Positions 31,065 to 43,955 of a DNA stretch of 64,000 nucleotides are shown piece after piece. This DNA comes from an uncultured candidate division Zixibacteria bacterium. GTDB lineage: Bacteria > Zixibacteria > MSB-5A5 > GN15 > FEB-12. The translations under genes and the position numbers were made by a program. The DNA is taken from contig CAVTJJ010000003.1 in the NCBI GenBank assembly GCA_963735035.1, positions 544,001 to 608,000 on the forward strand, written 5' to 3'. The first letter of the stretch is position 1. Every line of letters starts with the position of its first letter. The notes under the pieces are model-generated. The model saw nothing but the letters and a program-made list of their open reading frames with translations, made no database searches and had not been told where the DNA came from.

Positions 31065-32219
31065 CTACCAGCTCAGTTGCCAGTTGGCCGAATTAGGCAC
31101 CGATACTCGCTTGCGGAGAATCGTCCCGTCGCTACGGTTGATCGTAAACTCGTATGAGGGCGATCCGTTAAGCAGCGGAGAAGGGATCAGATCGAGATAG
31201 AAGTATCCGGACTCGTTCACAGTAGCAGTGACCGGAGTCGGAGAGATGATATTGCCGTTCTGCAGTGTCACTCCTCCGGGCAGCCGTGCAATAATTTTGG
31301 CATCGGTCTCGGCGCGACCGTCGGTGGTAAACAGATATCCATATACCCGGCACAACGACGGCGACGAAGGCGTCCCTGGATCAAACCAGGTCCCCGGAAC
31401 CGTGTCGGTTTTCGCGCCGGATATCGCGAGCGTATCGAAGGCTCCAAACATGAATCCCGGGGCCGTGGCAGTCACTAGGTAACTGCCGGCATCGAGGTTA
31501 GCGGTCGCATGTCCCGAAACATCTGTCACCGCCGACACGAGTAGAGCCGTCTGATCCAGATTTCGTATGCCGAGTGCAGCACCGGGTACTACGACGTGGT
31601 TGGACGTGTCAAACGCCAGCAACGTGACCGAATACGCTCCCGATCCGGCGATTCCGATAGCCTGATCCAGATCGACTGCGGTGTTATCTTCATCAAGGGA
31701 AGTCAACTGGCGGTCCGAATTGTCCCAGGGGTTATCATCGATCCCGGACACCGGCTCGTCCAGATTGTCGAGTCGCACCAGATAATCTGACAGTTCATCG
31801 CCGCCGAGTGTGAATGCAAAGCAATTCGGAGTCGGCAGACCACCGTCGCAATATAGGACCACCGTTCCGGTATAGAGACCCGCCCCTTCATCGTTGTCAA
31901 TGTCCGCGACCTGATCGACAAAGTAATAATATGTATGGCTCGCGAACCTCAGACTGTCAATATAGACGCTGCCGGCACCGGCGTTAGTCCAGCGGCAGGT
32001 ATATGAAACGGCGTCAGAGGTATTTTCCCCTTCGAACCAAACCAGCACATGACCAGAATCCGGCGCGACCGGCAAACCGGCGGAATCGAGCGCCTGAATC
32101 TCGAAACGAACGTAGTCAGCCGACGAGACCGCCCCCAGGTCCACGCCCGGCGCGACACCGGTTAGAATTGTGCACAGGAGTACACCAACGAATACCATCC
32201 TCATCTTCTTTGACCTCAC
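31065..32219 (-). CDS. Hypothetical protein with signal peptide and carboxypeptidase-regulatory-like (transthyretin-fold) repeats; last gene of the capsid cluster
   Basis: VPGAALGI..TDVSGHATANLDAGSYLVTATAPG; CRVYGYL..GYFYLDLIP. Confidence 0.65.
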   Translation of the reverse strand: MRSKKMRMVFVGVLLCTILTGVAPGVDLGAVSSADYVRFEIQALDSAGLPVAPDSGHVLVWFEGENTSDAVSYTCRWTNAGAGSVYIDSLRFASHTYYYFVDQVADIDNDEGAGLYTGTVVLYCDGGLPTPNCFAFTLGGDELSDYLVRLDNLDEPVSGIDDNPWDNSDRQLTSLDEDNTAVDLDQAIGIAGSGAYSVTLLAFDTSNHVVVPGAALGIRNLDQTALLVSAVTDVSGHATANLDAGSYLVTATAPGFMFGAFDTLAISGAKTDTVPGTWFDPGTPSSPSLCRVYGYLFTTDGRAETDAKIIARLPGGVTLQNGNIISPTPVTATVNESGYFYLDLIPSPLLNGSPSYEFTINRSDGTILRKRVSVPNSANWQLSW

Positions 32220-33277
32220 TGATTAGTAGTAAGCATGAACAGACGTCGCCGCGACGATGTTTCGGCTACCGCCGTGTGATAGTAGATTGTCACTTTGGGA
32301 CGATTGGCAGTTGTGGCGTTTTCAGACGACGCGAACACGGTGGAACCGTTTGTGCCAATTTCAACGAAGATCACACCGTAGGGCTGTTTGATGCCATCAT
32401 ACCAATCCTGAGCCAAATCGCCACCGACCCGAAAACGATACCAGGTCGGCGACGCCGATACGGTGACAGTGGTCATAGCCGTGGCCTTTCGGTCGGCCCC
32501 GGTACCGCTAAGACGATTCTGAGCGCCATGGTCGTTGACCGAATCGGCCATCTCTTTAGTCCATGCAGAATCATTGTGCCGCCAGTGGGTGTCATCGGCC
32601 GCACCTGATTCCACCGCGTTGTCACTGTTGCCTTCGTACCAGTCCTTCCACAACTCGAACATGCCAACGATTGCACCGGCCTGAGAGGTACAGTATAGAT
32701 CGATTGCCATCGAATCGATCACCTTGCCCATACCGACCGTATCCATGTTTGTGAACTTGAACAAGGATCGCCGGTTCAGTCCGGATAAATTCAGAACGGT
32801 CAACGTCTGCGAGGAGCCGAAATTGATATCATCGTAGTTCTGATACATCTTGGTGTCATATATGCCTGCCGAATTCTGGCCCTGAACGACCAGGCTGTCG
32901 GCTGCGGCGTGCGCCGAAATAATCGACAATGCCACAACGACGTATCGGAGCAACCTGAATAAGTGAACGTGACTTGTCACGGCTGAACCTTCCGACGTTT
33001 CGGACAGTGCCGGTTTCGGAGAAGCTTCGGCCTTCGTCCCAAACACTTCCTGTCTTACTTTCTGCACGGTCTTCCACAGTTCCTCATTGGACCTGTTCAC
33101 CGGCTGGATTTCTTTACACGATTGAATCATTTTGAGCAATGTCTCCGGTTTCTGGCTTTCGAAAATGACACGAGCGTTGTTGAGACACACCAGCATGATA
33201 TGGTCGTAAAGCAGGCGGACGTCTTCATCAACCGGCCGCTCGGTCTCGGCCTCACTTTTATCGGATTTCTTAATCAC
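32216..33277 (-). CDS. DNRLRE/CBM96-like domain protein (GTG 32980) apparently fused to a ~100-aa helical protein (GTG 33277)
   Basis: DTKMYQ..NFGSS..RSLFKF, FASSENATTANRPKVTI; internal signal peptide after GGAAGG and a GTGA overlap suggest two genes. Confidence 0.65.
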   Translation of the reverse strand: MIKKSDKSEAETERPVDEDVRLLYDHIMLVCLNNARVIFESQKPETLLKMIQSCKEIQPVNRSNEELWKTVQKVRQEVFGTKAEASPKPALSETSEGSAVTSHVHLFRLLRYVVVALSIISAHAAADSLVVQGQNSAGIYDTKMYQNYDDINFGSSQTLTVLNLSGLNRRSLFKFTNMDTVGMGKVIDSMAIDLYCTSQAGAIVGMFELWKDWYEGNSDNAVESGAADDTHWRHNDSAWTKEMADSVNDHGAQNRLSGTGADRKATAMTTVTVSASPTWYRFRVGGDLAQDWYDGIKQPYGVIFVEIGTNGSTVFASSENATTANRPKVTIYYHTAVAETSSRRRLFMLTTNQ

Positions 33278-33641
33278 CCAACTCCACAATCCACAGATCC
33301 ACCGTAATTGGCCCCGAGGCGGAGCTGTCCCGCGCTATCTTGAACCGATCAGCGGCTTCGCATCCGGTAACATACGCCGGCGCGCTTCCCTTGACCCGCA
33401 CGAATACCCTCGGGCTGTCCAATTGCGACGGCAGTGAATTGCCACGATGATCGGTCAGTTGACTGAACAACACTTCCTGCTGGCTCTCCCCGATCGACGC
33501 CGTACCGTAATAAACGGAGCGGGTGGATCCAATTTTCTCCAGGGCGAGATATTCATGCTCACCGATAGACGGTTGTCCCCAGACGGCAAGATCGGGCACG
33601 AACCAGGTTCTTCGCGAAGTCAAACGTTCCCATCCTGTCAT
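33270..33641 (-). CDS. Hypothetical protein in the capsid cluster
   Basis: AGGAG RBS; 123 aa; tightly packed in the operon. Confidence 0.65.
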   Translation of the reverse strand: MTGWERLTSRRTWFVPDLAVWGQPSIGEHEYLALEKIGSTRSVYYGTASIGESQQEVLFSQLTDHRGNSLPSQLDSPRVFVRVKGSAPAYVTGCEAADRFKIARDSSASGPITVDLWIVELGD

Positions 33642-33651
33642 GGTCTTCTCC

Positions 33652-34464
33652 TTAACTCCGCTGTGGATTTCGGGGACCGTTGAAAGGCGGGCGGAATCCT
33701 GTCAGCAGTTGATCGGATCGCCCGGCGTAGTCATCGGCCAGTTTGATCCAGACGGTGGCAATCTTGTCGGCACCGTTCTGCGAAGCCAGTTCGCGGCTGG
33801 CGGCCGCCCGGCAGACTATCTCCAGCGCCCGATACGTTGCGGCGGCACTCAGATTGGGATTAGCTTCGAATTCCCGCTCGGAATCCACCTCGGTCTGGAC
33901 CATACCGTTGGCCAGGGCGACAGCGTTCTCGATGATTTCATCGGTCACACTGACAAACACCGGTCGATAGTCGAGCCTGACCGTCTCCCCGGAGGCTATT
34001 TCGCCGCCCGTGAGACGCTTGATCTGTCCACCCGAAGCATCCAATCCATAATCACTCCCCTCTTCGTAGAGAGCGTAGGGCAGATACCATACGTGACGGT
34101 CTGCGTTGACGATAGACAGCCTCCGACTTTGGTCGAGAGGCGACCGCCCGCGTAGTCAACCACATAATCAACGTTCTCGACATAGACGGTGCCAAGCGAA
34201 CTGTCCGACGCCACCACAACTGAGTCGGGAATGATCATGCTCGGCGTGATCAAGGCCGAGCCGTCCGTGAATATGACACTCGAGCGTACAGGTGTGCGAG
34301 TCCGGATCGCCTTGACACGAACCGAGGTCGCGTCCACACCGCCGCCAAAGAAGCGAATGAACCCGGATCCAGACAATATCACCGAGTTGATCGACGACCT
34401 GCTCTTCGACCGGGTAAGGAATGACCAGATGCTGTCGGACCTGTTCCACGGTAGTGTATGACAT
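33652..34464 (-). CDS. Putative head-completion/connector protein (~270 aa), compensating +1/-1 frameshifts at ~34385 and ~34090
   Basis: N-terminal MSYTTVEQVRQHL and C-terminal IIENAVALANGMV..LSAAATYRALEI resemble gp6/gp15/Mu-gp36-type adaptors; three frames join into 813 nt. Confidence 0.5.
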
Positions 34465-34467
34465 AGT

Positions 34468-35889
34468 TTATCTCCTGAATGACATCATAGTGGCGTCGGT
34501 AGCGGCACTGATCTGACTGGCTACGGGCCCAGTGGAATAACCGGATACAACCTCGATCTTCACCCAGTACCGGCGTTGAGAATTGATGAGCCGCTTCTGC
34601 CAGTCATCAGGAAGAGCCGCGTAGTCGGTCCACATCAATATGTCGAAAGCGGACGATCCGAAGTTGGGATTCCCGTTGGCAGGAGTGAAAGCTTCCCAGT
34701 TGGCTCCGTCCCAATAGCTTACTTGCACCGAACCACCCACCCCGGTCTGTGAGAGTATCAGACGGGCCACGCGGAACGGCGCATCCATTCCTAGATACAG
34801 GATGTCCCCGGCGTCCTTCAGCAGGCAACCGGACGAAGCGTGATAGACATCAGCCACCTCCCAACCGGCCGCCTGAGACGTGACGTCCTGGTAGCCTTCG
34901 GACGCGGCGTGGTATAACAGAACTGAATCGAACTGGGCCGACCGGCGGTCGAGGACTTGCGACGAGCCAAAGCTGCCGGTACGGCGGTCACAGAAACGAG
35001 CCACTCTGGCTTCCCCGCCTATATCGTTCAGATAGACCACGGCCGCAATGTTACCCTCAAATAACACTTGTGGTGATGCTATCGGGTGTGACTCGATAAC
35101 CGCAACAGCTCCCCAGTTGTCACCGTCGGACTCGCGATAATAGAACTGGTCGCCGCACCAGGCGACTCCCAATCGATTATCCGCCCCAACAGCCGCGTCG
35201 AAACTACTCAGGCCGGAACCGTTGGCGACGGTAACGGCACTCGACCAGCTCCCGCCCGATAACGGGAGAGATCGGACATACACCGCCCAATCCTGGTCGT
35301 GGTACACTATGCGGACCCGGCTGGCATCAATAACCAGCTTCGACCAGGCGAACATCGAGCCGTTCGATATCTGATCACCGGCGTCATTAGCCCCGCTGCC
35401 CCAGGTCGCACCCGCGTCGTTGGAAGACTTGGCGTGAATCCATCGGTTCGGCGTAACATATCGGGAAAAGCTCACCCAGATTCGTCCGCCCGGCTCGATG
35501 GCAACTGATGGATCATAACACTGAGTACCGTTGTAAACCGTCACTTTGGCGCCGACCGACCAGAGTCCGCTTGCGAAAGTCAGCCTGCGAGTCACGAGAT
35601 AGCAGGTCGTCTGTTCGCTGTAGACCAGATGGATATCGCCATTGGGCGCCATTCGGGCATCAAAGCAACTGTCATCGGTATCCGAGACAACCGTCACGGG
35701 ACTAGACCATCCGGCCGCCGGCGCATCGGACCAAGCCAGCTTGATTTCACTCGGCGATGATTGAAACAATGCCACCCGTCGCCCGGAGTAAGTTCCGGTC
35801 GCGACCGTGAACAACCTGGCCTGCATGGACGTGCCCAGACCGTATGTCGCCGTGGTATCCGCAATTTTCTTCTGCATTGCGCCTCGCAT
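34468..35889 (-). CDS. Beta-propeller (BNR/Asp-box, sialidase-like) protein, putative particle appendage
   Basis: KSSNDAGATW Asp-box, repeated ..IHLVY/..WS blades, beta-rich C-terminal domain. Confidence 0.6.
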   Translation of the reverse strand: MRGAMQKKIADTTATYGLGTSMQARLFTVATGTYSGRRVALFQSSPSEIKLAWSDAPAAGWSSPVTVVSDTDDSCFDARMAPNGDIHLVYSEQTTCYLVTRRLTFASGLWSVGAKVTVYNGTQCYDPSVAIEPGGRIWVSFSRYVTPNRWIHAKSSNDAGATWGSGANDAGDQISNGSMFAWSKLVIDASRVRIVYHDQDWAVYVRSLPLSGGSWSSAVTVANGSGLSSFDAAVGADNRLGVAWCGDQFYYRESDGDNWGAVAVIESHPIASPQVLFEGNIAAVVYLNDIGGEARVARFCDRRTGSFGSSQVLDRRSAQFDSVLLYHAASEGYQDVTSQAAGWEVADVYHASSGCLLKDAGDILYLGMDAPFRVARLILSQTGVGGSVQVSYWDGANWEAFTPANGNPNFGSSAFDILMWTDYAALPDDWQKRLINSQRRYWVKIEVVSGYSTGPVASQISAATDATMMSFRR

Positions 35890-35890
35890 G

Positions 35891-35920
35891 AAAAGACGGG
35901 TCCGGTCGCCCGGACCCGTC
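35891..35920 (-). terminator. Intrinsic terminator directly after the major capsid gene
   Basis: GACGGGTCCGG-gcga-CCGGACCCGTC-TTTT on the minus strand. Confidence 0.8.
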
Positions 35921-35928
35921 GCTAATGA

Positions 35929-37032
35929 TTAGATGAAAGTGGTATCAAGAATGACCGACGCATCCCTTATGACCTTGGCGTAGGTCACCGATTCGGAGAT
36001 GACCGCCTCTTCGAACCGCTGCTCGATGATCTTGTCGTACTCGACCATGAGCGGCTGGGTGATGACTTCCTCGATGGCGAAACGGGTATCGAGTCCGATG
36101 ACAAAGTCGGTCGGGACTTCATCGGACCGCACCAGCGACGCTCCCAGCGGGCTGAACAGCTCACCGCTGTTCTGGAACCGATAACCGGCCAGCGGATCTT
36201 TGAACTCGTCCAGCGTGAGGATGGTCTTGAGCGTGTTGACATGACAGATGAGGCTGTTCATCTCGAACGGCGCGAATTGCGACCAGAGCGTGATCAGATC
36301 GTTGTAAGTCAGAGCGCCGGACGTGGCAGCGTTGACCGTCGCCGCCGGGTTAGCGTTGCCGTCGCCGTTGATCAGCGTATTGACCAGCATGCCGATCTTG
36401 TCGGTCTGCATGCGGAAGCCGATGTACCAGAGCAGGACTCGGAACTGCGACGTGCTCCGATAGCGCAACGCCTTGTAAGATGATTTCAGCGCCAGGCCGT
36501 AGTCGCGCACATTCACCGCGTGGTTCTGCTCGGTCACGATCAACTGCGGAATTTCGGCCCCTTCGCCGATCGGCCGCAGCGAGAAACGTTCCTTGCTGGT
36601 GGTGTCGATGTGGAATGGCGTGTAACGGTTAGTGTTGACGGTTGTGGTGTTGGCGATCAATTTGGCCAGCTCCGGCCGCATCGCCTGACCCTGCTTGATT
36701 TCGCGCAGGATGAACTCCGGCATCAGGACCGAAGCTTTCTGGAAGAACTGCTCGACCGTGGTCGGGTTCTTGCCGCCCAACTGTACTCCCGCCAGAAGGA
36801 GCTGCCGCTCGAACGCGTCGACGGGCGATCCAAGAGCGCTTGGGTCGTATTCGTCACACTCGAGCAGTTCCGAAAGAGTCAGACCGCGCGCCTCGGCTTG
36901 CAGATACAGGTCACGATCTATCTCGACCCCCGCTGCGCGACTGAGATCAGCGCGTGCGTTCGAGCCCGAACTGCGATCCTCATTCATAGAGGCGCCCACA
37001 GCGGCTGATTGCAGAAATTGATTGAAATCCAT
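35929..37032 (-). CDS. Phage-type major capsid protein (HK97 fold)
   Basis: GGAGG RBS; VLMPEFI..IGEGAEIP..YGLALKSSY..LINGDG..VEYDKII pattern; position in the head module. Confidence 0.8.
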   Translation of the reverse strand: MDFNQFLQSAAVGASMNEDRSSGSNARADLSRAAGVEIDRDLYLQAEARGLTLSELLECDEYDPSALGSPVDAFERQLLLAGVQLGGKNPTTVEQFFQKASVLMPEFILREIKQGQAMRPELAKLIANTTTVNTNRYTPFHIDTTSKERFSLRPIGEGAEIPQLIVTEQNHAVNVRDYGLALKSSYKALRYRSTSQFRVLLWYIGFRMQTDKIGMLVNTLINGDGNANPAATVNAATSGALTYNDLITLWSQFAPFEMNSLICHVNTLKTILTLDEFKDPLAGYRFQNSGELFSPLGASLVRSDEVPTDFVIGLDTRFAIEEVITQPLMVEYDKIIEQRFEEAVISESVTYAKVIRDASVILDTTFI

Positions 37033-37042
37033 GGTTGCCTCC

Positions 37043-37465
37043 TTAGTTCAATAGAATGACACAGTCGGTCGTGCCGTTTACCGCGAGGACTGTGCCGCGA
37101 GCGATGTTTCCGCCGGCCGGATCATAGCCGGTCAGCACCGGCGCCTGTTTGACCGTCCCGTTGCCACCACCGACTACTCGATTGCCCACGGTCGGAACGG
37201 TTGCCGACACCGCCAGTCGACATATGCCGCCAATCTGGACCGTCGCCTGGCGCTGGCCGTTGTCGTTGTCAGACAACGTCAGACTGATCAGCTTGCCCAA
37301 CAATTGACCGTTGTTAGCCAACGGCCCGATTTCGTTGCTGCCGGTCAGCATGACCGGTTCGCCGAGATCGGCATCCTTGAGATCGTCCACGCCGGTGGTC
37401 TGGTGGACGCTGAACGTCGCCAGCACCGGGGCAATGGTCTCAAGGTCTTGATTTCTTACTGCCAT
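37043..37465 (-). CDS. Putative capsid decoration/cement protein
   Basis: Small Gly-rich beta protein (ATVQIGG, VGNRVVGGGNGTVK, RGTVLAV) immediately before the capsid gene. Confidence 0.6.
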   Translation of the reverse strand: MAVRNQDLETIAPVLATFSVHQTTGVDDLKDADLGEPVMLTGSNEIGPLANNGQLLGKLISLTLSDNDNGQRQATVQIGGICRLAVSATVPTVGNRVVGGGNGTVKQAPVLTGYDPAGGNIARGTVLAVNGTTDCVILLN

Positions 37466-37543
37466 AAATTGCTCCTGAAAGTTCTGAATTGTTTGAGTTC
37501 GATTGGGGTATGCGACCACATGATGCTATCGCGTTTCCCCGCA

Positions 37544-37963
37544 TTACCGGGCCGACGGCTGTGCCTTGGGCCCACTGTAATTGCGTGGTCCGAAACTGCC
37601 GGGGAAACAATCCCGGAATCGGGCGGCGACACGACGATGCGTTTCCAGCAGGCGCGACGGCGTCTGTGTCGCCAGATCGTCGATGAGCGCCGCCGCTTCT
37701 TCCCATCGCTCCCGCTTCCGATCGACCGCCGCCACCGCCTTGATCATGCCGGCGACGCGTTGCTCGATATCCTGTCGCAATACGGCATGGCCTTCAGCCA
37801 ATTCCGCCAACCCGTTCAGGGTGGCACACATGGCGCGGAGACGGCTCTGAAGTTCATCGAAGTCGAGCCGTGCGAGGCTGGCTTCGTCCAGCAGACTGAC
37901 CACGCTCTCGAAATAGGCAATTTCGTTCTTAATGTTTTCCAAGGTTCTCTCCCGAGTATTCAA
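37544..37963 (-). CDS. Helical hypothetical protein (possible scaffold)
   Basis: Coiled-coil-like, lies between protease-like and capsid genes. Confidence 0.5.
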   Translation of the reverse strand: MNTRERTLENIKNEIAYFESVVSLLDEASLARLDFDELQSRLRAMCATLNGLAELAEGHAVLRQDIEQRVAGMIKAVAAVDRKRERWEEAAALIDDLATQTPSRLLETHRRVAARFRDCFPGSFGPRNYSGPKAQPSAR

Positions 37964-38240
37964 CCAGATAGTCTTCTATGCGAATGAGGCGGGCTTCGAC
38001 ATCCGAGGAGAAGCGAAAGAACTGTTCTTTGCTGACCGTACCTTCCTTGAGCAGAACTTCGATACTCGCTAATCTCTTGTCGAGCGTTCCCACCACGGCA
38101 CCTTCCGCCTTGGCTGCCAATTCAACTTTCAACGATTGAATCGTCATGAAGTAGGCTGCCGCGATCCCCAGAATGACCGAGAGCAGATTGATCCACCAGC
38201 TATGCAGGCGGAAGGTCGATTCGGAATTGTCACTGCTCAT
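37929..38240 (-). CDS. Small single-TM coiled-coil protein (holin-like?)
   Basis: WWINLLSVILGIAAAYFMTI TM, then VEARLIRIE coiled coil; ATGA overlap. Confidence 0.55.
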   Translation of the reverse strand: MSSDNSESTFRLHSWWINLLSVILGIAAAYFMTIQSLKVELAAKAEGAVVGTLDKRLASIEVLLKEGTVSKEQFFRFSSDVEARLIRIEDYLVEYSGENLGKH

Positions 38241-39793
38241 GCTGCTTCTCCTGCGTTCGTGCCTTCGGACAAGCGACCGAACAGGAAGTGATCTTCCCCT
38301 TTCAGCTTGATCGGGCGCAGAACAAACGAACCAGTCAGGTCGCCGGACAAATTGAATCGCCAGGCGTCGCCTTCTTGAGTTATGCGGTTGAGATGCCCGG
38401 TAAGAGTTCTTCCCCTCCAGACTGATCCTGGTAGCGGCCCTGATCGCCTGGCCAGGAAACGCTTCCCTGATGTCAGTTTGCTAAGGTCGAAGTCTGCCAG
38501 GTCTAATATCAGCGGGGCGATGTCTCCCCTGCCCAAAGTTGAACCACTTGATCGCAGAGTAAGATGTGCCAGACCATCACCGAGCCTGAGAGTAAGCTCA
38601 GAAGAAAATAAACGTCGCCGATTCTGACTTGGCGGACGATACCAATAGCCTTTGCCGGCAACCAGGGCAGTCGCCTGTGCACCGACCGGATGAATCTCAA
38701 CCCCGTCTTTGGTCATGACTTCCATGACAGCGTGCTCAAGTCGTTCGCGGGTCGCGATACGATAGGGCATCAGTCGAATTTCGTTTCTCGATCTTGAGGT
38801 TACACGGGGCAGCGTCACCATGCCCTGGCTGGGGAGAAGATGAAGCACTAGCCGCGTAACCGGACTGGTCCGACCTTCCAGATAGTCTTCCAACTGTTCA
38901 ACGGAGCAACGTTCTTTGCCGCGCTGTCCCACCAGAATACCGAGTAGTGATTCGCACCAGCGCAGCCCGATCGGGCCAAAATGATCGGACCGGCGAATCG
39001 GCTTTCCGTCCAACTGTGTCAGGGTAAGTCTATCCCCGTCTATCGCTGCAGATACCTGAAGTCCTACGTAACGTGGTATCACTAAGTAATCGGAACTCCC
39101 ACCGATATCGGCGAGGCTCAACACGGGTTCAACCGTCCATTCCGGACTCGCTATGACTGAGCTTTCGATATCGCCAGTCGTATCGCCGAGTTCTTTGACG
39201 ACCGCCGTGTTCGGAACCGCTCCCCGGTAGACCAGCGATGTTTCGAGAACCCGCTCGACCTGGCGATAGTTGAAATGACACGGTTCGGACGAGCCGGCAT
39301 GGTCGTATGACTCAAACGGCTGATGTTGACAGCGACGGATATCCTTGCCGCAGATGGAGCATTCCGGCAGATGGAAAGTGAACGCGATCGAACATTCCTT
39401 GTAGATGCCCCCGTCGAGATTGGCGCAGAACTCTTCGGCCCGGTCAGCCAGCTTCAGCCAGTAGAAATAGCTCTTCACCCAGGGACGTCCGTCCCGGTCA
39501 ACGGTCGTAGCGTGAAACGTTCGCGCTACCGGAAGTTGGTCTTTGCGATGTCCCACGAGAACCGGCGAGTCCACCAGAAGTTGGGCGAGTCCCGAATGCT
39601 CCTCAACCGGGAACCGGCCTCCGAAAGAGTTGACCTGGTCTGATACAATGTACATCGCCCTGATGTAGACGTCATCCGCCGATACCCGGGCCGGCGGCTT
39701 GATATTGACATTAATCAACTCCACCAACTCTGCCGGTATTTCCTGTCCCGGTTCGGCCAGTTCCGCTACTACCCTACCCATGCTCAGGGTCAT
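38237..39793 (-). CDS. Prohead protease-like protein with Cys/His finger, fused to degenerate ATP-dependent ligase and LigD-phosphoesterase-like domains
   Basis: GGAGG RBS; VLVGH, GGIYKECSIAF, CSICGKD..CQH, ETSLVYRGAVP; C-terminal half YLVIPRYVG..IDGDRLTL and FNLSGDLTGSFVLR. Confidence 0.6.
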   Translation of the reverse strand: MTLSMGRVVAELAEPGQEIPAELVELINVNIKPPARVSADDVYIRAMYIVSDQVNSFGGRFPVEEHSGLAQLLVDSPVLVGHRKDQLPVARTFHATTVDRDGRPWVKSYFYWLKLADRAEEFCANLDGGIYKECSIAFTFHLPECSICGKDIRRCQHQPFESYDHAGSSEPCHFNYRQVERVLETSLVYRGAVPNTAVVKELGDTTGDIESSVIASPEWTVEPVLSLADIGGSSDYLVIPRYVGLQVSAAIDGDRLTLTQLDGKPIRRSDHFGPIGLRWCESLLGILVGQRGKERCSVEQLEDYLEGRTSPVTRLVLHLLPSQGMVTLPRVTSRSRNEIRLMPYRIATRERLEHAVMEVMTKDGVEIHPVGAQATALVAGKGYWYRPPSQNRRRLFSSELTLRLGDGLAHLTLRSSGSTLGRGDIAPLILDLADFDLSKLTSGKRFLARRSGPLPGSVWRGRTLTGHLNRITQEGDAWRFNLSGDLTGSFVLRPIKLKGEDHFLFGRLSEGTNAGEAA

Positions 39794-39977
39794 CTATACC
39801 TCCACGTATGCATCTGCTCAAGGGGACAAATGTGCAATCTGCACTAAGTTAATACCGAAAGTGTGCAGACCATTTCAGAGAGGGGATTAATCCGTTTGGA
39901 GTAATTGGCTCTAGTTGTCAATGACTATCTTATTGCCCAGCAGTGCGTTCGCTATGCGCGAATCACCAAGAAGAAAC

Positions 39978-39993
39978 AGGCACGACCTTTGCT
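39978..39993 (+). promoter_or_regulatory. Sigma54 -24/-12 promoter of the PEP-CTERM gene
   Basis: aGGCACGacctTTGCT matches TGGCACG-N4-TTGCW; inverted repeat GTGCA-atc-TGCAC at 39832-39844 is a possible enhancer. Confidence 0.7.
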
Positions 39994-40043
39994 TAAACCT
40001 CGCCGAAGCCGCGCAACAATCGGCTCTGAAAGGTGAAAAGAAT

Positions 40044-40421
40044 ATGACACTGTATCGCAGTCGTACCAGCCAGCCACTCAAGTGGATTGTTGCTCTCTTC
40101 GTTTTCGCCCTCGTGATGGGAGTGACTTTCTCTGACGTCTATGGCCAGGACCATCACAACGGCGGCAAGCCGGGTGACAACAACTTTCACGGCGACCGTG
40201 GCAAGAATGACGATCATAACGGTGGCCACTATGGTAACAATGGTGGCAACGGCGGCGGCAACAACGGCGACCATGGAAATGGTGGCGGTGGAGACAATGG
40301 CGGCAACGGCGGCAATGATAACCCGGCCCCGTCTTCCGTTCCTGAACCGGGCACGTTGATTCTTCTCGCCGGTGGATTGAGCGCTCTTTATGTAGCTCGT
40401 CGGAACAAGTCAGTTAAGTAA
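40044..40421 (+). CDS. Small Gly/Asn/His-rich PEP-CTERM protein
   Basis: Signal peptide, low-complexity core, VPEPGTLILLAGGLSALYVARR. Confidence 0.92.
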   Translation: MTLYRSRTSQPLKWIVALFVFALVMGVTFSDVYGQDHHNGGKPGDNNFHGDRGKNDDHNGGHYGNNGGNGGGNNGDHGNGGGGDNGGNGGNDNPAPSSVPEPGTLILLAGGLSALYVARRNKSVK

Positions 40422-40505
40422 TCGAAGATATAGATCCCCAATCCCTCCCTTTAACGCCTTCCGGTCATACTTGAACCGGAGGGCGTTTTGCGTTTGGTCG
40501 ATCTC

Positions 40506-41852
40506 TCATACTGCTCCCACCCGAGGTGACGGCGAAAACACCGGCGAACTTCTTAACGGCCACAGGGCCAGACCCAGCGCCATGAGGGCATCGCATTCGT
40601 TGTTGTCGTCCCATCGCGCGGCCCGAAGTTCTGATTCAAGCGACCACGACCTTCCCGGACCATCCGGCAATTCCCAGCGATCATAGATGATCGTCTTCCG
40701 CGCGTGCCACAGCTCGACGTTGGTCAGAAGCTCGGCTTTGGACGCCGCCGTGAATATGACCGCTTCGGGGCGGTAGTCGCGCAACTGCTCAACCACAACA
40801 TCCCCCAAACCGGTGGCATCGATCACCAGCCGCCCCGGATAGAGCTGCTGGCGCTGCCTTATCTTTTCGAGCACCACCACCCAGTCAAATTGCTTGAAGC
40901 GTTCGAGCGCCACTATGCGGGCGCGGCCGTCCTTCACTTCGACAGTAATACCCACGGTCGCGGTCTTCTTCCGCGCGAGGTCCCAGCCGGAAATGTAGCG
41001 GCAACTCTTCGGATCGACAATTGCCGACTCTTGTCGACCGGCATCCAGCGCAGCATCGACATACTCGCCTTTGAGTATTTCGCCTCCGGAATCCACGAAC
41101 TGCCCCATAATGTTCTGCTTCAGCCGGCTCTCGGAGAAGTACTTCACCCGCTCATCGAGAAAGTCTCGTGAGACATTCGGATTGTCACGACTGTCGCCGG
41201 ACTGAAAGTATCCGGGACGATTGCCTTCACTGATCTCGCGGGCGCGGCGATAGAACCAATTCTTGCCGTTCGGGGTCGAGACCAGATCGAGCCGCCCTTC
41301 ACGGTCGGCCAGCCGCATCAGGATGACTTCCTCGACCACATACTCCGGCGATGTTTCAAACGCAACTTCATCGAAAATGAACAGGTCGTAGTCGTTCCCA
41401 AGCAGATACTCGCCGCGATTCTGAGTCGTGCGGGCTTCTATGGTCGCGCCGTTGCCGAATGTAAGACAGGGAAACGGCGTCCAGACCAAATCAGACATCA
41501 GCGACGACACCAGCGGCGACTGGCGCAGCAGTCGCAGCACTTGACTGAACACCAAGTTAGCCTGTGGTTGGGTTATCGACGCCACCACCGCGCGATACCG
41601 CTGCGTATCATCGAACTTGAGAGGCCGCACGCGGTAGATAGCGCCATGAATGAGCTTCACCGCCGATACGAACGACTTCCCCCACCGGTTGCCGGTAACC
41701 AGAACATTCTCGCTCCGGGTCGATCCGTTTAGCCAGGCCTGTTGCCCCGGATGCAATTCGACTTCGAGAAAATGCCGCGCGAAGAATGTCGGGTCTTCCA
41801 GCCCGCGCCGCCAATCGTCGTAAGTCGGCGATGGGATTACAGCAGGGTCCAA
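40506..41852 (-). CDS. Terminase large subunit
   Basis: LHPGQ, Walker A GNRWGKS, Walker B FIFDE, STPNGKNWFY, nuclease GWDLA, IDATGLGD, CDALMALGLA; intact ORF. Confidence 0.92.
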   Translation of the reverse strand: MDPAVIPSPTYDDWRRGLEDPTFFARHFLEVELHPGQQAWLNGSTRSENVLVTGNRWGKSFVSAVKLIHGAIYRVRPLKFDDTQRYRAVVASITQPQANLVFSQVLRLLRQSPLVSSLMSDLVWTPFPCLTFGNGATIEARTTQNRGEYLLGNDYDLFIFDEVAFETSPEYVVEEVILMRLADREGRLDLVSTPNGKNWFYRRAREISEGNRPGYFQSGDSRDNPNVSRDFLDERVKYFSESRLKQNIMGQFVDSGGEILKGEYVDAALDAGRQESAIVDPKSCRYISGWDLARKKTATVGITVEVKDGRARIVALERFKQFDWVVVLEKIRQRQQLYPGRLVIDATGLGDVVVEQLRDYRPEAVIFTAASKAELLTNVELWHARKTIIYDRWELPDGPGRSWSLESELRAARWDDNNECDALMALGLALWPLRSSPVFSPSPRVGAV

Positions 41853-43106
41853 ATCTTTTCGCGCGCCTGTTCCTTGTCGATCAACCCGGCCTGATAGAGT
41901 TTCAGGACATTGTCCACCCGGCCGCTTTCCATTGCGAGATTATCCTTCGCCTGATACGCGAAAGCATTGTCGAACTCATACCGACAGCGGACGTTTATTC
42001 CCGCCAAAGCCAGGTCAATCCCGGCGATCCATTCGAGAAAACGAGCCACCTCGGCCTGCACCGAGCGGACCTGCCGCATGACCACATCGAATTTGAACCC
42101 CGACCAGGTCGTGGTCGCACCGTAGGAGTATCCGAGTAGATATGGGGCCAGATGCGTCCCGGCGCAAATCTCCTCGATCATCGACCGATGGCTCATGAAC
42201 CAACTGCTGGTCACATCGCGCGATTTCTCAGGCGCGACATGGCCGATCTCAACATTGTCCCAGGTGACCGGGTTGTCGTCGATCTCAAGTGTCTTGATCA
42301 TTCGCACGGTGGCGTCGAAATACCCGTTGATACGATCGGTGTAGGCACTGTCCGACTCACCCCCCATCCGCTCCGGCGGGGTGATCTTCACGTGCAGCCG
42401 ATGAAACCCGGAATTGTGGCTGGATCGGCGCATGTCGTCCACCAGTTGTTGCTCTACGTAAGACACGAACGGAATGGCTTGCAGAATCGACCGTCCAAAC
42501 GGCTGCGCGATTCCACCGTTGAACGGGACGTAGTAGAAATCGGGACGGTCCAGCGCTATCGTAGTGTGATCCAGTTCCAGCATCAGCCGTCTTTGGCCTG
42601 TGTCTTGATCCGCGCGAAGATTGATCGGATCGACCGGGATAAACTGATCGACCCCTTCGTCCCCATGCACGGTCAGGAATCCCGCGAAGATCCCGTCACG
42701 ATATAGCGACATGAACAGGTCCGGCAACAGACTGTCCAGGCCGATCCGATTCCCCGACGGATTCGTGTACATACGGCGTACTAATTGATCGAGTCGTTCC
42801 TGCGCTTTGGCGGAAGTACGGCCGTCATCGTTGTCCATAACCTTGAATCGCCCCGGCGCGGCCGACAATCGCACCCAGGTCCAGATGCAGGCATTGATGA
42901 CCGGAATCTGGTCGGTGAGGAAATCGATAGAGTAGTTTGCGCCAGCGTCCTGATTCGATGTCCTGATAACTCCATCGCAACACTGCTTCCATCTTGTCGG
43001 CGGTGGCAAATTTGTTTCGTTCCATCGGCTTGATCAGTGTGGCGTCACGAAGTTGATTCGCCGACAAACCTGTTCCGTTTGACGGCGCGTGCCCGATTTC
43101 ATGCAT
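41837..43106 (-). CDS. Phage portal-like protein, one frameshift at ~42937
   Basis: AGGGAG RBS and ATG 43106; IPVINACI, FIPVDP, PFGRSIL, EEICAG..LAPYLLG, LYQAGLIDKEQAR; adjacent to TerL. Confidence 0.75.
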
Positions 43107-43229
43107 AGCATTTCTCCCTTTTGGTGAAACTCGGGGGCAACGGATCACCTTTGATGATCGTGTGAATTTGCGACCAACACGTTGCGAATCCCGCTGCGAC
43201 TGGCCCACTTCGACCACTCTACATGTGCC

Positions 43230-43955
43230 CGTCCCGCCGCGGCGGATCCACATCTGCCAGCTCGTACTACTACTGTCCCATGTCTGTCTTGCCCCGGTTT
43301 AGGCGGGCATCAAAGGGTGTCAATTCCCTCTTTAATCGGCAGGGTTCCAACCCTGCCGTGCGCATTCCGGCAGGCACAGAGGCCTGCCGATTAAAGTAAA
43401 CACTCTCTTGCCCCGCTTCAGGCAGGGCACCCAGGGGTTGTTTGATCGGTAGCCAGTAGGTCAGGAGCCCTTAGGCTCCTGACAATCGACATTCATGCTT
43501 TGCGCGAATCTCAATTGTAGGTCAGGCCTACTCGGGGCCTGACGTTTTGACTATCCGGCAGATGTGGGCATCTGCCGGGCACGGTTGCGCGAATGTCAGG
43601 CGTCAAGTCCGCCTGACCTACCGGTCTGTAAAATTTCGGTACCCCACCCAACGTGCCTGTTGAACCCCCCCCCGAACGTTGTTGCGTCAGGTCTTGCGCC
43701 GCCACAGGCGGCGTGTGACCTGACGCGTTGCAGCGACTTAGGGAATCACTATCGTGCGTCGAATGATACGAATTGAGGCAAGACAGGCTTTTTTAACAGG
43801 CCCCAACGGGTGGGATTATTAGTTGTCGAGATCGATCTCCTTCGCGAAGACCCACCTGTTAGGTGGGGTACAAGTTGTAGGTCAGGCCTACTCGGCGGCC
43901 TCACATCTTCACCGTAATCCAACCCGAATGTCAGGCGTCAAGTACGCCTGATCGG
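43230..43955. repeat. Dense nested REP/REPIN/MITE mosaic
   Basis: REPIN 43517-43621 with nested CCGGCAGATG palindrome; further GTAGGTCAGG copies; MITE 43653-43803. Confidence 0.8.
43653..43803. mobile_element. MITE-like element, copy 2, with 4-bp target duplication
   Basis: TIRs GTGCCTGTTGAA / TTTAACAGGCCC flanked by CAAC (43649-43652 and 43804-43807). Confidence 0.72.

Follow-up and report, generated by a model that had tools for sequence, protein, structure and literature searches.

A predicted capsid-maturation protease with a degenerate DNA ligase/phosphoesterase-like module in a phage-head-type gene cluster of the Zixibacteria

The window, a stretch of 64,000 nucleotides from an uncultured bacterium of the candidate division Zixibacteria, contains on its (-) strand a head-type gene cluster (positions 31065..43253) in which all genes recognizable from PHROG or Pfam matches are phage head genes. 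Along this strand, the portal gene (41837-43253), which contains a frame change, is followed by the gene for the large terminase (TerL; 40506-41852), identified by PHROG/Pfam, and then by the open reading frame considered here, P0001 (38237..39793; 518 aa), which appears to encode a capsid-maturation protease joined to a degenerate ligase/phosphoesterase (PE) module. ORFs of 103, 139, and 158 aa lie between P0001 and the gene for the major capsid protein (MCP; 35929-37032), which is followed by the gene for a 473-aa protein and five further ORFs, all on the same strand. The P0001 reading frame has 557 homologues, nearly all of them full length at about 500 aa, and the alignment shows that its start is common to them. 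One candidate, P0177 (1446 aa; five stretches), is repetitive and unrelated and was dropped from the family. Sequence and profile searches of Pfam, NCBIfam, and the PDB with P0001 itself gave no usable match, the single PDB row, for Fyn kinase, having an E value of 2 and being regarded as noise.

The order of genes in the cluster is maintained in 8 of 8 genomes, representing 7 families. The protease gene is present, almost always as a single copy, in 80 of the 81 genomes sampled from the phylum and in 55 of 55 genera, whereas MCP and TerL were found in 79 and 78 of the 81, respectively; the MCP sequences share 55-86% identity throughout the phylum. In one genome (G020), TerL is located about 100 kb away from the remaining cluster genes. 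If this were an ordinary prophage, the fusion would serve the normal infection of a resident temperate phage, and this would account for the exclusively head-type character of the recognizable genes and for the relationship of the protease and MCP to proteins of real phages, including the phrog_3922 MCPs. However, single-copy occurrence throughout nearly all genomes and every genus sampled, the level of MCP identity, and the maintenance of gene order between families argue against a resident phage, as do the surroundings of the cluster, where genes for an integrase, a repressor, or replication were not recognized and the flanks consist of cellular genes; a prophage is a very improbable explanation. 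The distribution suggests instead that the cluster represents a domesticated, GTA-like particle. It should be recognized that the copy of the cluster in the window may not be fully functional because of the frame change in the portal gene. The genomic context may outweigh the gene itself in importance, with a head gene cluster conserved in about 98% of the genomes sampled from an uncultured phylum that has been little studied; a literature search covering titles and the beginnings of abstracts found no domesticated phage-derived particle in this phylum.

The N-terminal region of P0001, residues 1-205 (39179..39793), of which about residues 20-205 are folded, is assigned a capsid-maturation protease fold of the HK97/T4 gp21/assemblin type on the basis of an AF2 model (pLDDT 81), structural alignment with VIA-align, and PHROG. 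The closest structures in VIA-align are T4 gp21 (5jbl_A; Z 8.5, 137/165), the VZV protease (1vzv_A; Z 7.9), the HCMV protease (8j3s_A; Z 7.0), and 1fl1_A (Z 5.2), and, of the five chains that reach Z ≥5, four are capsid proteases, with the reservation that the best Z of 8.5 barely exceeds the range rated as common by the tool. With this model, Foldseek found nothing in the pdb at E ≤0.001, the best E being 0.015. The sequence comparisons point in the same direction as the structural alignments: the domain matches PHROG 16951 (E 8e-19), and tblastn identifies annotated phage head-maturation proteases as its homologues, one of which (tblastn E 1e-5) exceeds the cut-off for Peptidase_S78 (23.7 bits versus 21), a family that gave no match in the Pfam search of P0001 itself. 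The genes of the phage homologues are situated between portal and MCP, as is that of P0001.

Within this domain, His82 (codon 39548..39550, (-) strand) and Ser135 (codon 39389..39391, (-) strand; in the sequence KECSIAF) are present in 180 of 180 aligned family members; His82 aligns with a His of a Flavonifractor phage protease and the ECS sequence is kept in the phage homologue, making these residues the candidate catalytic histidine and serine of the protease. The sequence Cys145-x2-Cys148-x6-Cys155-x-His157 (39323..39361, (-) strand), assigned from the 180-member alignment, is a probable zinc knuckle inserted within the protease fold: the three cysteines occur in 180 of 180 members and the histidine in 179, and the Cys3-His arrangement, which would be expected to bind metal, is also found in the phage homologue. 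Residues 206-233 (39095..39178, (-) strand) form a variable linker that is unconserved, has a gappy alignment, and receives low pLDDT values where the N-terminal model ends.

The remainder of the protein was modeled from the family alignment (residues 226-518; pLDDT 86.9). Residues 234-393 (38615..39094, (-) strand) are assigned from their fold and from hhalign as a degenerate adenylation (NTase) domain of an ATP-dependent DNA ligase, the structure search with the model having matched the NTase domains of archaeal, T4, and human ligases (Z 11-12.2, rmsd 3.0-3.5 Å, 150-160 residues aligned). The 46 chains with Z ≥5 are all of the ligase/capping type or LigD-PE, except for one chain of a monkeypox polymerase complex, and a structure search of BFVD recovered only ordinary viral ligases and nothing linked to capsids. 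In hhalign, the profile of the C-terminal half of the family aligns with 10 true ligases of the phylum (Prob 92.9%, E 3.6e-7) with what is left of motifs I, III, IIIa, and IV occurring in the correct order; the ligases used in this comparison came from other genomes, since neither P0001 nor any other part of its own genome has a match with PF01068.

The original prediction had described P0001 as a prohead protease-like protein fused to a catalytically dead DNA ligase/LigD-PE-like module, and had read the spacing of the ligase motifs from the sequences DYLVIPRYVGLQVSAAIDGDRLTLTQLDG (residues 235-263), LLGILVG (283-289), RLVLHLL (314-320), and KDGVEI (362-367), all of which are present in the translation. 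The protease-like and adenylation folds that it proposed are those found above. Its placement of motifs I, IIIa, and IV also agrees with the hhalign alignments, in which R241, part of the motif I remnant P240-R241-Y242-V243-G244 (39062..39076, (-) strand), falls on the adenylated lysine of motif I, while motif IIIa is matched by RLVLHLL and the EG of motif IV by D363-G364; the proposed replacement of that lysine by arginine is correct, positions 39062-39073 of the (-) strand encoding RYVG. Its motif III does not hold: LDG (residues 261-263) is paired with the ligase strand coming after motif I, and the true equivalent is L283-L284-G285-I286, within LLGILVG. Among the 180 members, the residues required by the ligase motifs have largely been lost. 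Position 241 is occupied by R in 55, H in 27, F in 24, A in 22, Y in 21, C in 8, and N and L in 6 each, and is Lys in only 4, which are without the other motif residues; the Arg of motif I (KxDGxR) is replaced by Pro in 100 members, the position of the motif III Glu, 286, varies (L40, R34, H21, Q20, and others), that of the motif IV Lys, 368, is Trp in 128, and the motif V/OB region is deleted in the P0001 family. The loss of these residues supports the view that the ligase module is catalytically dead, as had been proposed.

Residues 397-510 (38264..38605, (-) strand) are assigned as a degenerate β-barrel of the LigD 3'-phosphoesterase type from their fold and from a BLASTP match with P0211. 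The model aligns with 3p43 (Z 11.3, 103/124 residues, rmsd 2.7), 3p4h_A (Z 10.3), and 3n9b_A (Z 9.4), and LigD-PE is the sole fold matched by this segment above Z 4.6, in agreement with the earlier suggestion of such a barrel from the tail sequences HLTLR (410-414), GKRFLAR (443-449), and FNLSGDLTGSFVLR (480-493), each of which is present. In LigD PE, metal is bound by His, His, and Asp, and an Arg and a His are catalytic. HLTLR had been likened to the His-x-Asp-x-Arg strand of PE, a resemblance that is sound with respect to the barrel but shifted by one residue in register, A409, H410, and T412 being the equivalents of His, Asp, and Arg; the shift is immaterial, as conservation is lacking at all three positions. 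Positions 403, 409, 410, and 412, which align with the PE ligands, are all unconserved among the 180 members, consistent with the predicted inactivity of this part of the module. At the sequence level, PF13298 was not found in the Pfam search of P0001, and the alignment of canonical LigD_N (seven true sequences) with the family profile in hhalign is not significant (Prob 2.5%, E 0.019). The models show P0001 to consist of three predicted folds, those of a capsid protease, a ligase adenylation domain, and a LigD-PE-type barrel.

The relationship with apparently intact enzymes becomes clearer from longer proteins of 734-789 aa that occur in 4 of the 81 genomes and combine a P0001-type protease with a ligase, an OB, and a PE-like domain. 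In these intact fusions, the ligase matches PF01068 (E 6e-29 to 2e-33) in one open frame with the protease domain. As to whether the orthologs of P0001 keep KxDG, most do not, but these four do, the complete KxDGxR being present, and they look to be still catalytically competent. Their PE-like domains score 14.5-22.7 bits against a PF13298 cut-off of 31.1, and the spacer of about 120 residues between protease and ligase contains no Pfam family except for the start of the ligase domain. The C-terminal profile of the P0001 family aligns with the four intact fusions in hhalign (97.7%, E 2.4e-12) over 274 collinear columns, the approximately 500-aa family skipping the OB domain. In BLASTP, the N-terminal domain of P0001 is 54% identical with that of P0211 (E 1e-73), and the barrel matches the P0211 PE-like domain (E 7e-5). 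At the sequence level, the barrel is connected to LigD by way of the intact fusions, in which the PE-like domain has diverged and, as noted, does not itself reach the Pfam cut-off.

Forms of about 600 aa retain the OB domain, which is included in their hhalign alignment (99.6%, E 4e-24). PF01068 matches a member of this type directly (29.5 bits, cut-off 26.2), and a Pfam ligase match is present in three genome-derived forms of this length but in none of ten library members. That the ligase-like motifs and folds are a coincidence or an artifact of modeling might be argued from the failure of P0001 itself to match any Pfam, NCBIfam, or PDB sequence. Nevertheless, the agreement of a structure search that did not use Foldseek with the profile-profile alignments and with the Pfam ligase match in a longer member, together with the presence of the same protease domain in the intact fusions, makes a chance resemblance so improbable that it can be set aside. 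The alignments show, at the level of sequence, that the C-terminal module is related to ligase and PE by homology, beyond similarity of fold alone.

The phylum contains, in addition, short forms, and 20 of 20 such loci that were fetched encode the protease domain alone. A single phylum holds a series made up of an intact-looking enzyme, a dead form with the OB domain, a dead form without it, and a form with no module, and this makes the purpose of a capsid-borne ligase directly testable. A tree of the N-terminal domain, obtained by a rapid search in which SH-aLRT was the sole measure of support, was constructed from 66 rows: 29 forms of about 500 aa (28 chosen at random and P0001), 11 long, 4 intact, and 20 short forms, together with 2 phage outgroups. 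The forms of about 500 aa constitute one group and the intact forms another, with support of 93 for each, and the short forms require at least 3 changes. The root of this tree and the order of gains and losses are not established, because the outgroup branches have lengths of about 10 changes per column. Since many lineages have dropped the module entirely, it appears to be accessory rather than essential.

Such losses would also be expected of a functionless appendage, and the module might be a relic that decayed once its activities had become useless and is tolerated as a mere tail or spacer attached to a protease that is itself essential. The missing catalytic residues, the deletion of the OB domain, and the lower conservation of the module (median identity to P0001 among 167 members of 0.34 for the NTase-like part and 0.28 for the barrel, versus 0.64 for the protease) fit with this. 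However, after such divergence, an unconstrained remnant would be expected to be truncated or unfolded, whereas most of the 31 open frames from genomes (472-585 aa) are without stops and the family alignment yields a confident fold prediction. P240, Y242, R295, and G364 are invariant among the 180 members, and R291, G292, R314, and T361 are nearly so. A basic charge is also maintained across the family, the median pI of the two parts of the module being 9.1 and 9.6 as compared with 5.8 for the protease domain (n = 168). A relic is, on this evidence, an unlikely description of the module. The basic charge is in itself a weak indication of DNA binding.

The conserved basic residues raise a different alternative, in which the old pocket or an Arg/Lys cluster (R291, K/R293, R295, R314, R/K362) has acquired a new ligand or reaction, for example the binding of a cap or nucleotide as in snurportin. 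The m3G-cap-binding domain of snurportin-1 is among the structural matches (1xk5_A, Z 8.4), and its fold can bind without catalysis. Against this, the R-G-[KN]-x-R stretch also occurs in the intact fusions and is an inherited feature rather than a new one, and, among the 180 members, none of the Lys, His, Asp, or Cys residues of the C-terminal half from which a new catalytic center might be formed is invariant (the best Lys column being 135/180). The Trp found at the motif IV lysine position in 128 of the 180 members may in addition fill the former nucleotide pocket. Neo-functionalization of the module seems less plausible still than its decay into a relic.

The explanation that we consider probable is that P0001 is the capsid-maturation protease of a conserved head cluster, the C-terminal 290 residues of which are a pseudo-enzyme derived from a protease-ligase-OB-phosphoesterase fusion and have an accessory role. 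In this mechanism, the polypeptide would enter the procapsid during assembly by virtue of its protease domain, as is the case for the head modules of other tailed phages, and the appended module would travel inside as a head-internal accessory. The intact forms would place a DNA-end-healing and -sealing enzyme beside the packaged DNA, and in the P0001 lineage the chemistry would have been lost, leaving a non-catalytic part that contacts nucleic acid or is structural, which is the most likely nature of the module. Its basic charge and its fusion to a head-module protease may be hints that the module is itself packaged or binds DNA ends. A more specific and more speculative proposal, which we regard as possible but doubtful, is that the particle is GTA-like, that its protease once delivered a LigD-type ligase, OB domain, and 3'-phosphoesterase into the head, and that the P0001 form is a later, non-catalytic, DNA-contacting stage. 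If this were true, packaged linear DNA would be accompanied by its own repair and joining enzyme, and this would be the first NHEJ-type ligase to be built into a capsid by means of a protease. Prohead proteases fused to scaffolds are known, as are ligase folds that persist as binding modules, and a search of the literature by titles found no fusion of a capsid protease with a LigD-type ligase/phosphoesterase.

The cluster resembles GTAs such as the RcGTA of Rhodobacter in being lineage-wide, single-copy, collinear, and free of recognizable integration and replication genes, but differs in that tail genes were not identified. RcGTA has split loci, with which the distant TerL of genome G020 may be compared. 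P0001 shares with the prohead proteases (Peptidase_S78), T4 gp21, and assemblin the fold and the placement of the gene, and its invariant His and Ser are candidates for the catalytic pair, but it is distinguished by the Cys3-His insert and by the 290-residue extension derived from ligase and PE. In snurportin-1, an NTase-type fold likewise serves binding as opposed to covalent catalysis, but this is a eukaryotic protein without sequence relationship to P0001, and its own ligand pocket is intact whereas that of P0001 is seemingly dismantled. The ATP-dependent DNA ligases (PF01068) have in common with P0001 the NTase fold and the ordered motif remnants, and are its homologues by way of the intact fusions; P0001 differs from them in having no conserved nucleophilic lysine, motif I Arg, motif III Glu, motif IV Lys, or OB domain and in the location of their counterpart behind a capsid protease. 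The resemblance to the LigD 3'-phosphoesterase (PF13298) is in the barrel fold (Z 9.4-11.3) and does not extend to conservation of the aligned His, Asp, and Arg positions or to a match with the canonical LigD_N profile. The order of domains also differs, in that the separate LigD-type genes of the phylum encode PE followed by ligase, whereas in P0001 the ligase-like domain precedes the PE-like barrel.

Translation of 38237-39793 on the minus strand gives a single open reading frame of 518 residues, P0001, which is without a match in Pfam, NCBIfam or PDB sequences and whose sole match, over residues 24-206, is to PHROG 16951, a family of unknown function. The structures of its domains discussed here are all predicted models. 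The N-terminal domain had been described as protease-like, and this agrees with the model of residues 1-215 (pLDDT 81), which resembles the T4 capsid assembly protease gp21 (Z 8.5, 137 of 165 residues) and the proteases of three herpesviruses, varicella-zoster virus (Z 7.9), cytomegalovirus (Z 7.0) and KSHV (Z 5.2); just one further chain had a Z of at least 5, and Foldseek gave the same kind of match, weakly (best E 0.015). Among 180 family members of 440-640 residues, H82, D85, E133, S135, C145, C148, C155, E184, S186 and R190 of this domain never vary, and all but one have H157. A tblastn search of phage records returned six matches, among them a Flavonifractor phage gene annotated as "major head and protease protein" and an Enterococcus phage gene annotated as "head maturation protease", each lying between portal and major head protein. 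The Flavonifractor phage protein aligns with an E of 6e-17 and keeps the His, the serine of the "ECS" motif and the Cys-x2-Cys ... Cys-x-His insert; the Enterococcus phage protease passes the Peptidase_S78 cut-off (23.7 bits against 21), and its adjoining major capsid protein is annotated as phrog_3922, the family of the capsid protein in the window.

The remainder of P0001, a module of about 290 residues, was the subject of the original prediction, a catalytically dead DNA ligase followed by a LigD 3'-phosphoesterase (PE)-like barrel; the strings that it quoted are all found in P0001 at the positions given, and 39062-39073 on the minus strand codes for R241-Y242-V243-G244. Both proposed folds are recovered in an AF2 model of residues 226-518 (63-row alignment, mean pLDDT 86.9). 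Residues 226-393 (model 1-168) superpose in VIA-align on ligase adenylation domains with Z of 11-12.2 and rmsd of 3.0-3.5 Å over 150-160 aligned residues, and residues 397-510 (model 172-285) on the archaeal LigD-PE 3p43 with Z of 11.3 and rmsd of 2.7 Å over 103 of 124 residues. The best Foldseek matches in the PDB are human LIG1, a marine bacterial ligase, archaeal ligases and capping enzymes (E 2e-4 to 5e-3), and two LigD phosphoesterase structures are also among the matches. In a structure search independent of Foldseek, 46 of 48,161 chains compared had Z of at least 5; two are LigD-PE (3p4h_A, Z 10.3; 3n9b_A, Z 9.4) and the other 44 are DNA ligases, RNA ligases, capping enzymes, the snurportin cap-binding domain and RNA-repair ligase complexes, together with one chain of a monkeypox polymerase complex. 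For the barrel, no fold other than LigD-PE exceeded Z 4.6 among the chains compared.

The module is homologous to a ligase-PE enzyme, beyond likeness of fold. When its family profile was compared by hhalign with ten true ATP-dependent ligases from other genomes of the phylum, it matched with a probability of 92.9% and E of 3.6e-7, placing motif I (E-x-K-x-D-G-x-R) on I239-Q246 with the lysine on R241, motif III (L-D-G-E) on L283-I286, motif IIIa on R314-L320 and motif IV (E-G) on D363-G364. The "LDG" at 261-263, earlier taken for motif III, instead aligns with the strand after motif I. The profile did not match seven true LigD_N domains from the same source (probability 2.5%). Four other genomes encode intact fusions of 734-789 residues, in all of which the protease domain is in frame with a Pfam-recognized ligase (PF01068, E 6e-29 to 2e-33) that contains KxDGxR, LDGE, EGxxxK and WxKxK and is followed by an OB-like stretch and, in three, by a weak LigD_N match (14.5-22.7 bits, cut-off 31.1). 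The module profile matches these fusions with a probability of 97.7% and E of 2.4e-12 over 274 collinear columns, skipping the OB domain, and the forms of about 600 residues match them with a probability of 99.6% and E of 4e-24 over 368 columns, OB domain included. In direct comparison with one fusion, P0211 (L010:736-3066), the protease domain of P0001 is 54% identical (E 1e-73) and its barrel aligns with the PE-like domain (E 7e-5), which in P0211 keeps a His ... His-His-Asp-x-Arg pattern; the nucleotidyltransferase parts align weakly (E 0.36) but in register, with R241 on the lysine. A 474-residue genome-derived form, its frame cut by a contig end, matches PF01068 directly (29.5 bits against a cut-off of 26.2), and two complete long forms (630 and 650 residues) fall below that cut-off.

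In the intact fusions the PE-like part has itself diverged: all are under the Pfam LigD_N cut-off, and a second fusion, P0212 (L008:541-2742), has His-His-Asn-x-Arg where P0211 has His-His-Asp-x-Arg. Phosphoesterase decay may have started earlier than ligase decay. The fusions also carry an extra stretch of about 120 residues between protease and ligase domains (L010:2032-2424, minus strand; L008:1180-1560, plus strand), with no Pfam match. Ordinary separate LigD-type genes, in which LigD_N leads directly into the ligase domain, occur in a minority of genomes (G043:C7, G074:C7, G065:C30, G042:C18 and G005:C5); PF01068 was matched in 14 and PF13298 in 8 of the 81 sampled, and neither in the window's own genome.

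As to whether orthologs keep KxDG, the four intact fusions do and most others do not. At the motif I lysine position the 180 members have Arg (55), His (27), Phe (24), Ala (22), Tyr (21), Cys (8), Asn (6), Leu (6) and Lys in only 4; these four belong to the shorter class and lack the Arg of motif I, the Glu of motif III and the Lys of motif IV. Of 12 members of the longer class, 10 have Ala there. Position 286, where motif III would have its Glu, is variable; at position 368, where motif IV would have its Lys, 128 members have Trp; the C-terminal columns have Lys in at most 135; and conservation is absent at the positions that correspond to the His, Asp and Arg of PE. These residues indicate that the ligase and PE chemistry of the module has been lost in the window's lineage. 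The N-domain tree has no reliable root; the change is taken to have run from active to dead because a degenerate ligase would hardly be expected to regain the full set of motifs.

A word-indexed search gave 557 relatives of P0001; the 120 listed are mostly of about 500 residues with end-to-end query coverage, and all 14 organism-named matches among them are Zixibacteria metagenome-assembled genomes. In a 47-sequence alignment, the first 200 residues are strongly conserved and the C-terminal half has only scattered invariants (P240, Y242, G292, R295, T361 and G364). When residues 224-518 were searched exhaustively on their own, 108 proteins were found, nearly all matching at about 220-500 within a protein of about 500 residues, so the module is not seen as a separate protein. 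Whole-genome searches with the protein located the gene, mostly in one copy, in 80 of 81 genomes and 55 of 55 genera. Measured from stop to stop, the frame is 734-789 residues in the 4 genomes with intact fusions, 589-719 in 17, 472-585 in 31 (one cut by a contig end) and 433 or less in 28 (one split, one a 109-residue fragment). At all 20 short-form loci fetched the protease domain stands alone, and no open frame of at least 60 residues in those stretches matched the module profiles (E ≤ 0.001). Having apparently been lost repeatedly, the module is most likely an accessory.

The gene lies in a head-type cluster of about 12 kb (31065-43253) whose head genes are on the minus strand: upstream of the protease are the portal, matched to phrog_3753 (E 1e-15), and the large terminase, matched to phrog_2 (E 3e-34) and Terminase_6N, and three small frames and then the major capsid protein (phrog_3922, E 3e-59) are downstream, followed by a 473-residue protein and five more frames. 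The capsid protein was matched in 79 of 81 genomes (55-86% identical) and the large terminase in 78. This gene order is kept in eight regions of 17-20 kb from seven families (L050-L057): six have portal, terminase, protease, 103- and 158-residue proteins, capsid protein, 473-residue protein, small frames and a 384-residue protein, and those of G037 and G020 have the order from the protease onward, with neither portal nor terminase in the stretch fetched. Frames of 139 and 357 residues were matched in only some of the eight. The window's cluster is flanked by cellular genes, a cysteine desulfurase-type aminotransferase and an HD-GYP response regulator, and no integrase or replication gene was recognized beside it.

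Several further features of the cluster were observed. The terminase is about 100 kb from the protease and capsid genes on G020:C1 (~961 and ~859-862 kb), about 57 kb from them in G030 and on a separate contig in others, G007 among them. The portal appears to change reading frame (42825-43253 and 41837-43009, minus strand) near 42921; residues ~54-101 of two relatives' portals align in one frame (~42921-43064) and 101-461 in another. The junction shows no homopolymer, and a sequencing error, a genuine frameshift or damage to the gene could account for the change. Between terminase and protease, on the opposite strand (39915-40421, plus), is a 168-residue protein rich in Gly, Asn and His that carries a PEP-CTERM sorting signal (Pfam E 2.6e-5), found at the same spot in two same-family relatives (L050 and L051) and unmatched in six more distant genomes. 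The 473-residue protein (34468-35889, minus strand) has faint BNR/glycosyl-hydrolase-like Pfam hints (E 0.002-0.01), follows the capsid gene in all eight compared genomes and might be a head decoration, fibre or receptor-binding part.

P0001 is a head-module protease that bears a folded, basic appendage: the two module parts have a median pI of 9.1 and 9.6, and the protease domain has one of 5.8 (n = 168). Among the titles and opening lines of abstracts in the literature, we found no description of a protease-ligase-PE fusion, nor of a capsid cluster conserved in the phylum. Kept in order across the phylum, the cluster has the look of a domesticated, GTA-like particle system. When tailed phages assemble, the prohead protease is incorporated into the procapsid, and a protein joined to it or to a capsid-targeting peptide finishes inside. 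Because of this, the protease domain of P0001 may likewise carry its appendage into the assembling head: in the intact forms, an enzyme that heals and seals ends would lie next to the packaged DNA, and the window's lineage would be left with a non-catalytic internal protein, probably DNA-contacting or structural.
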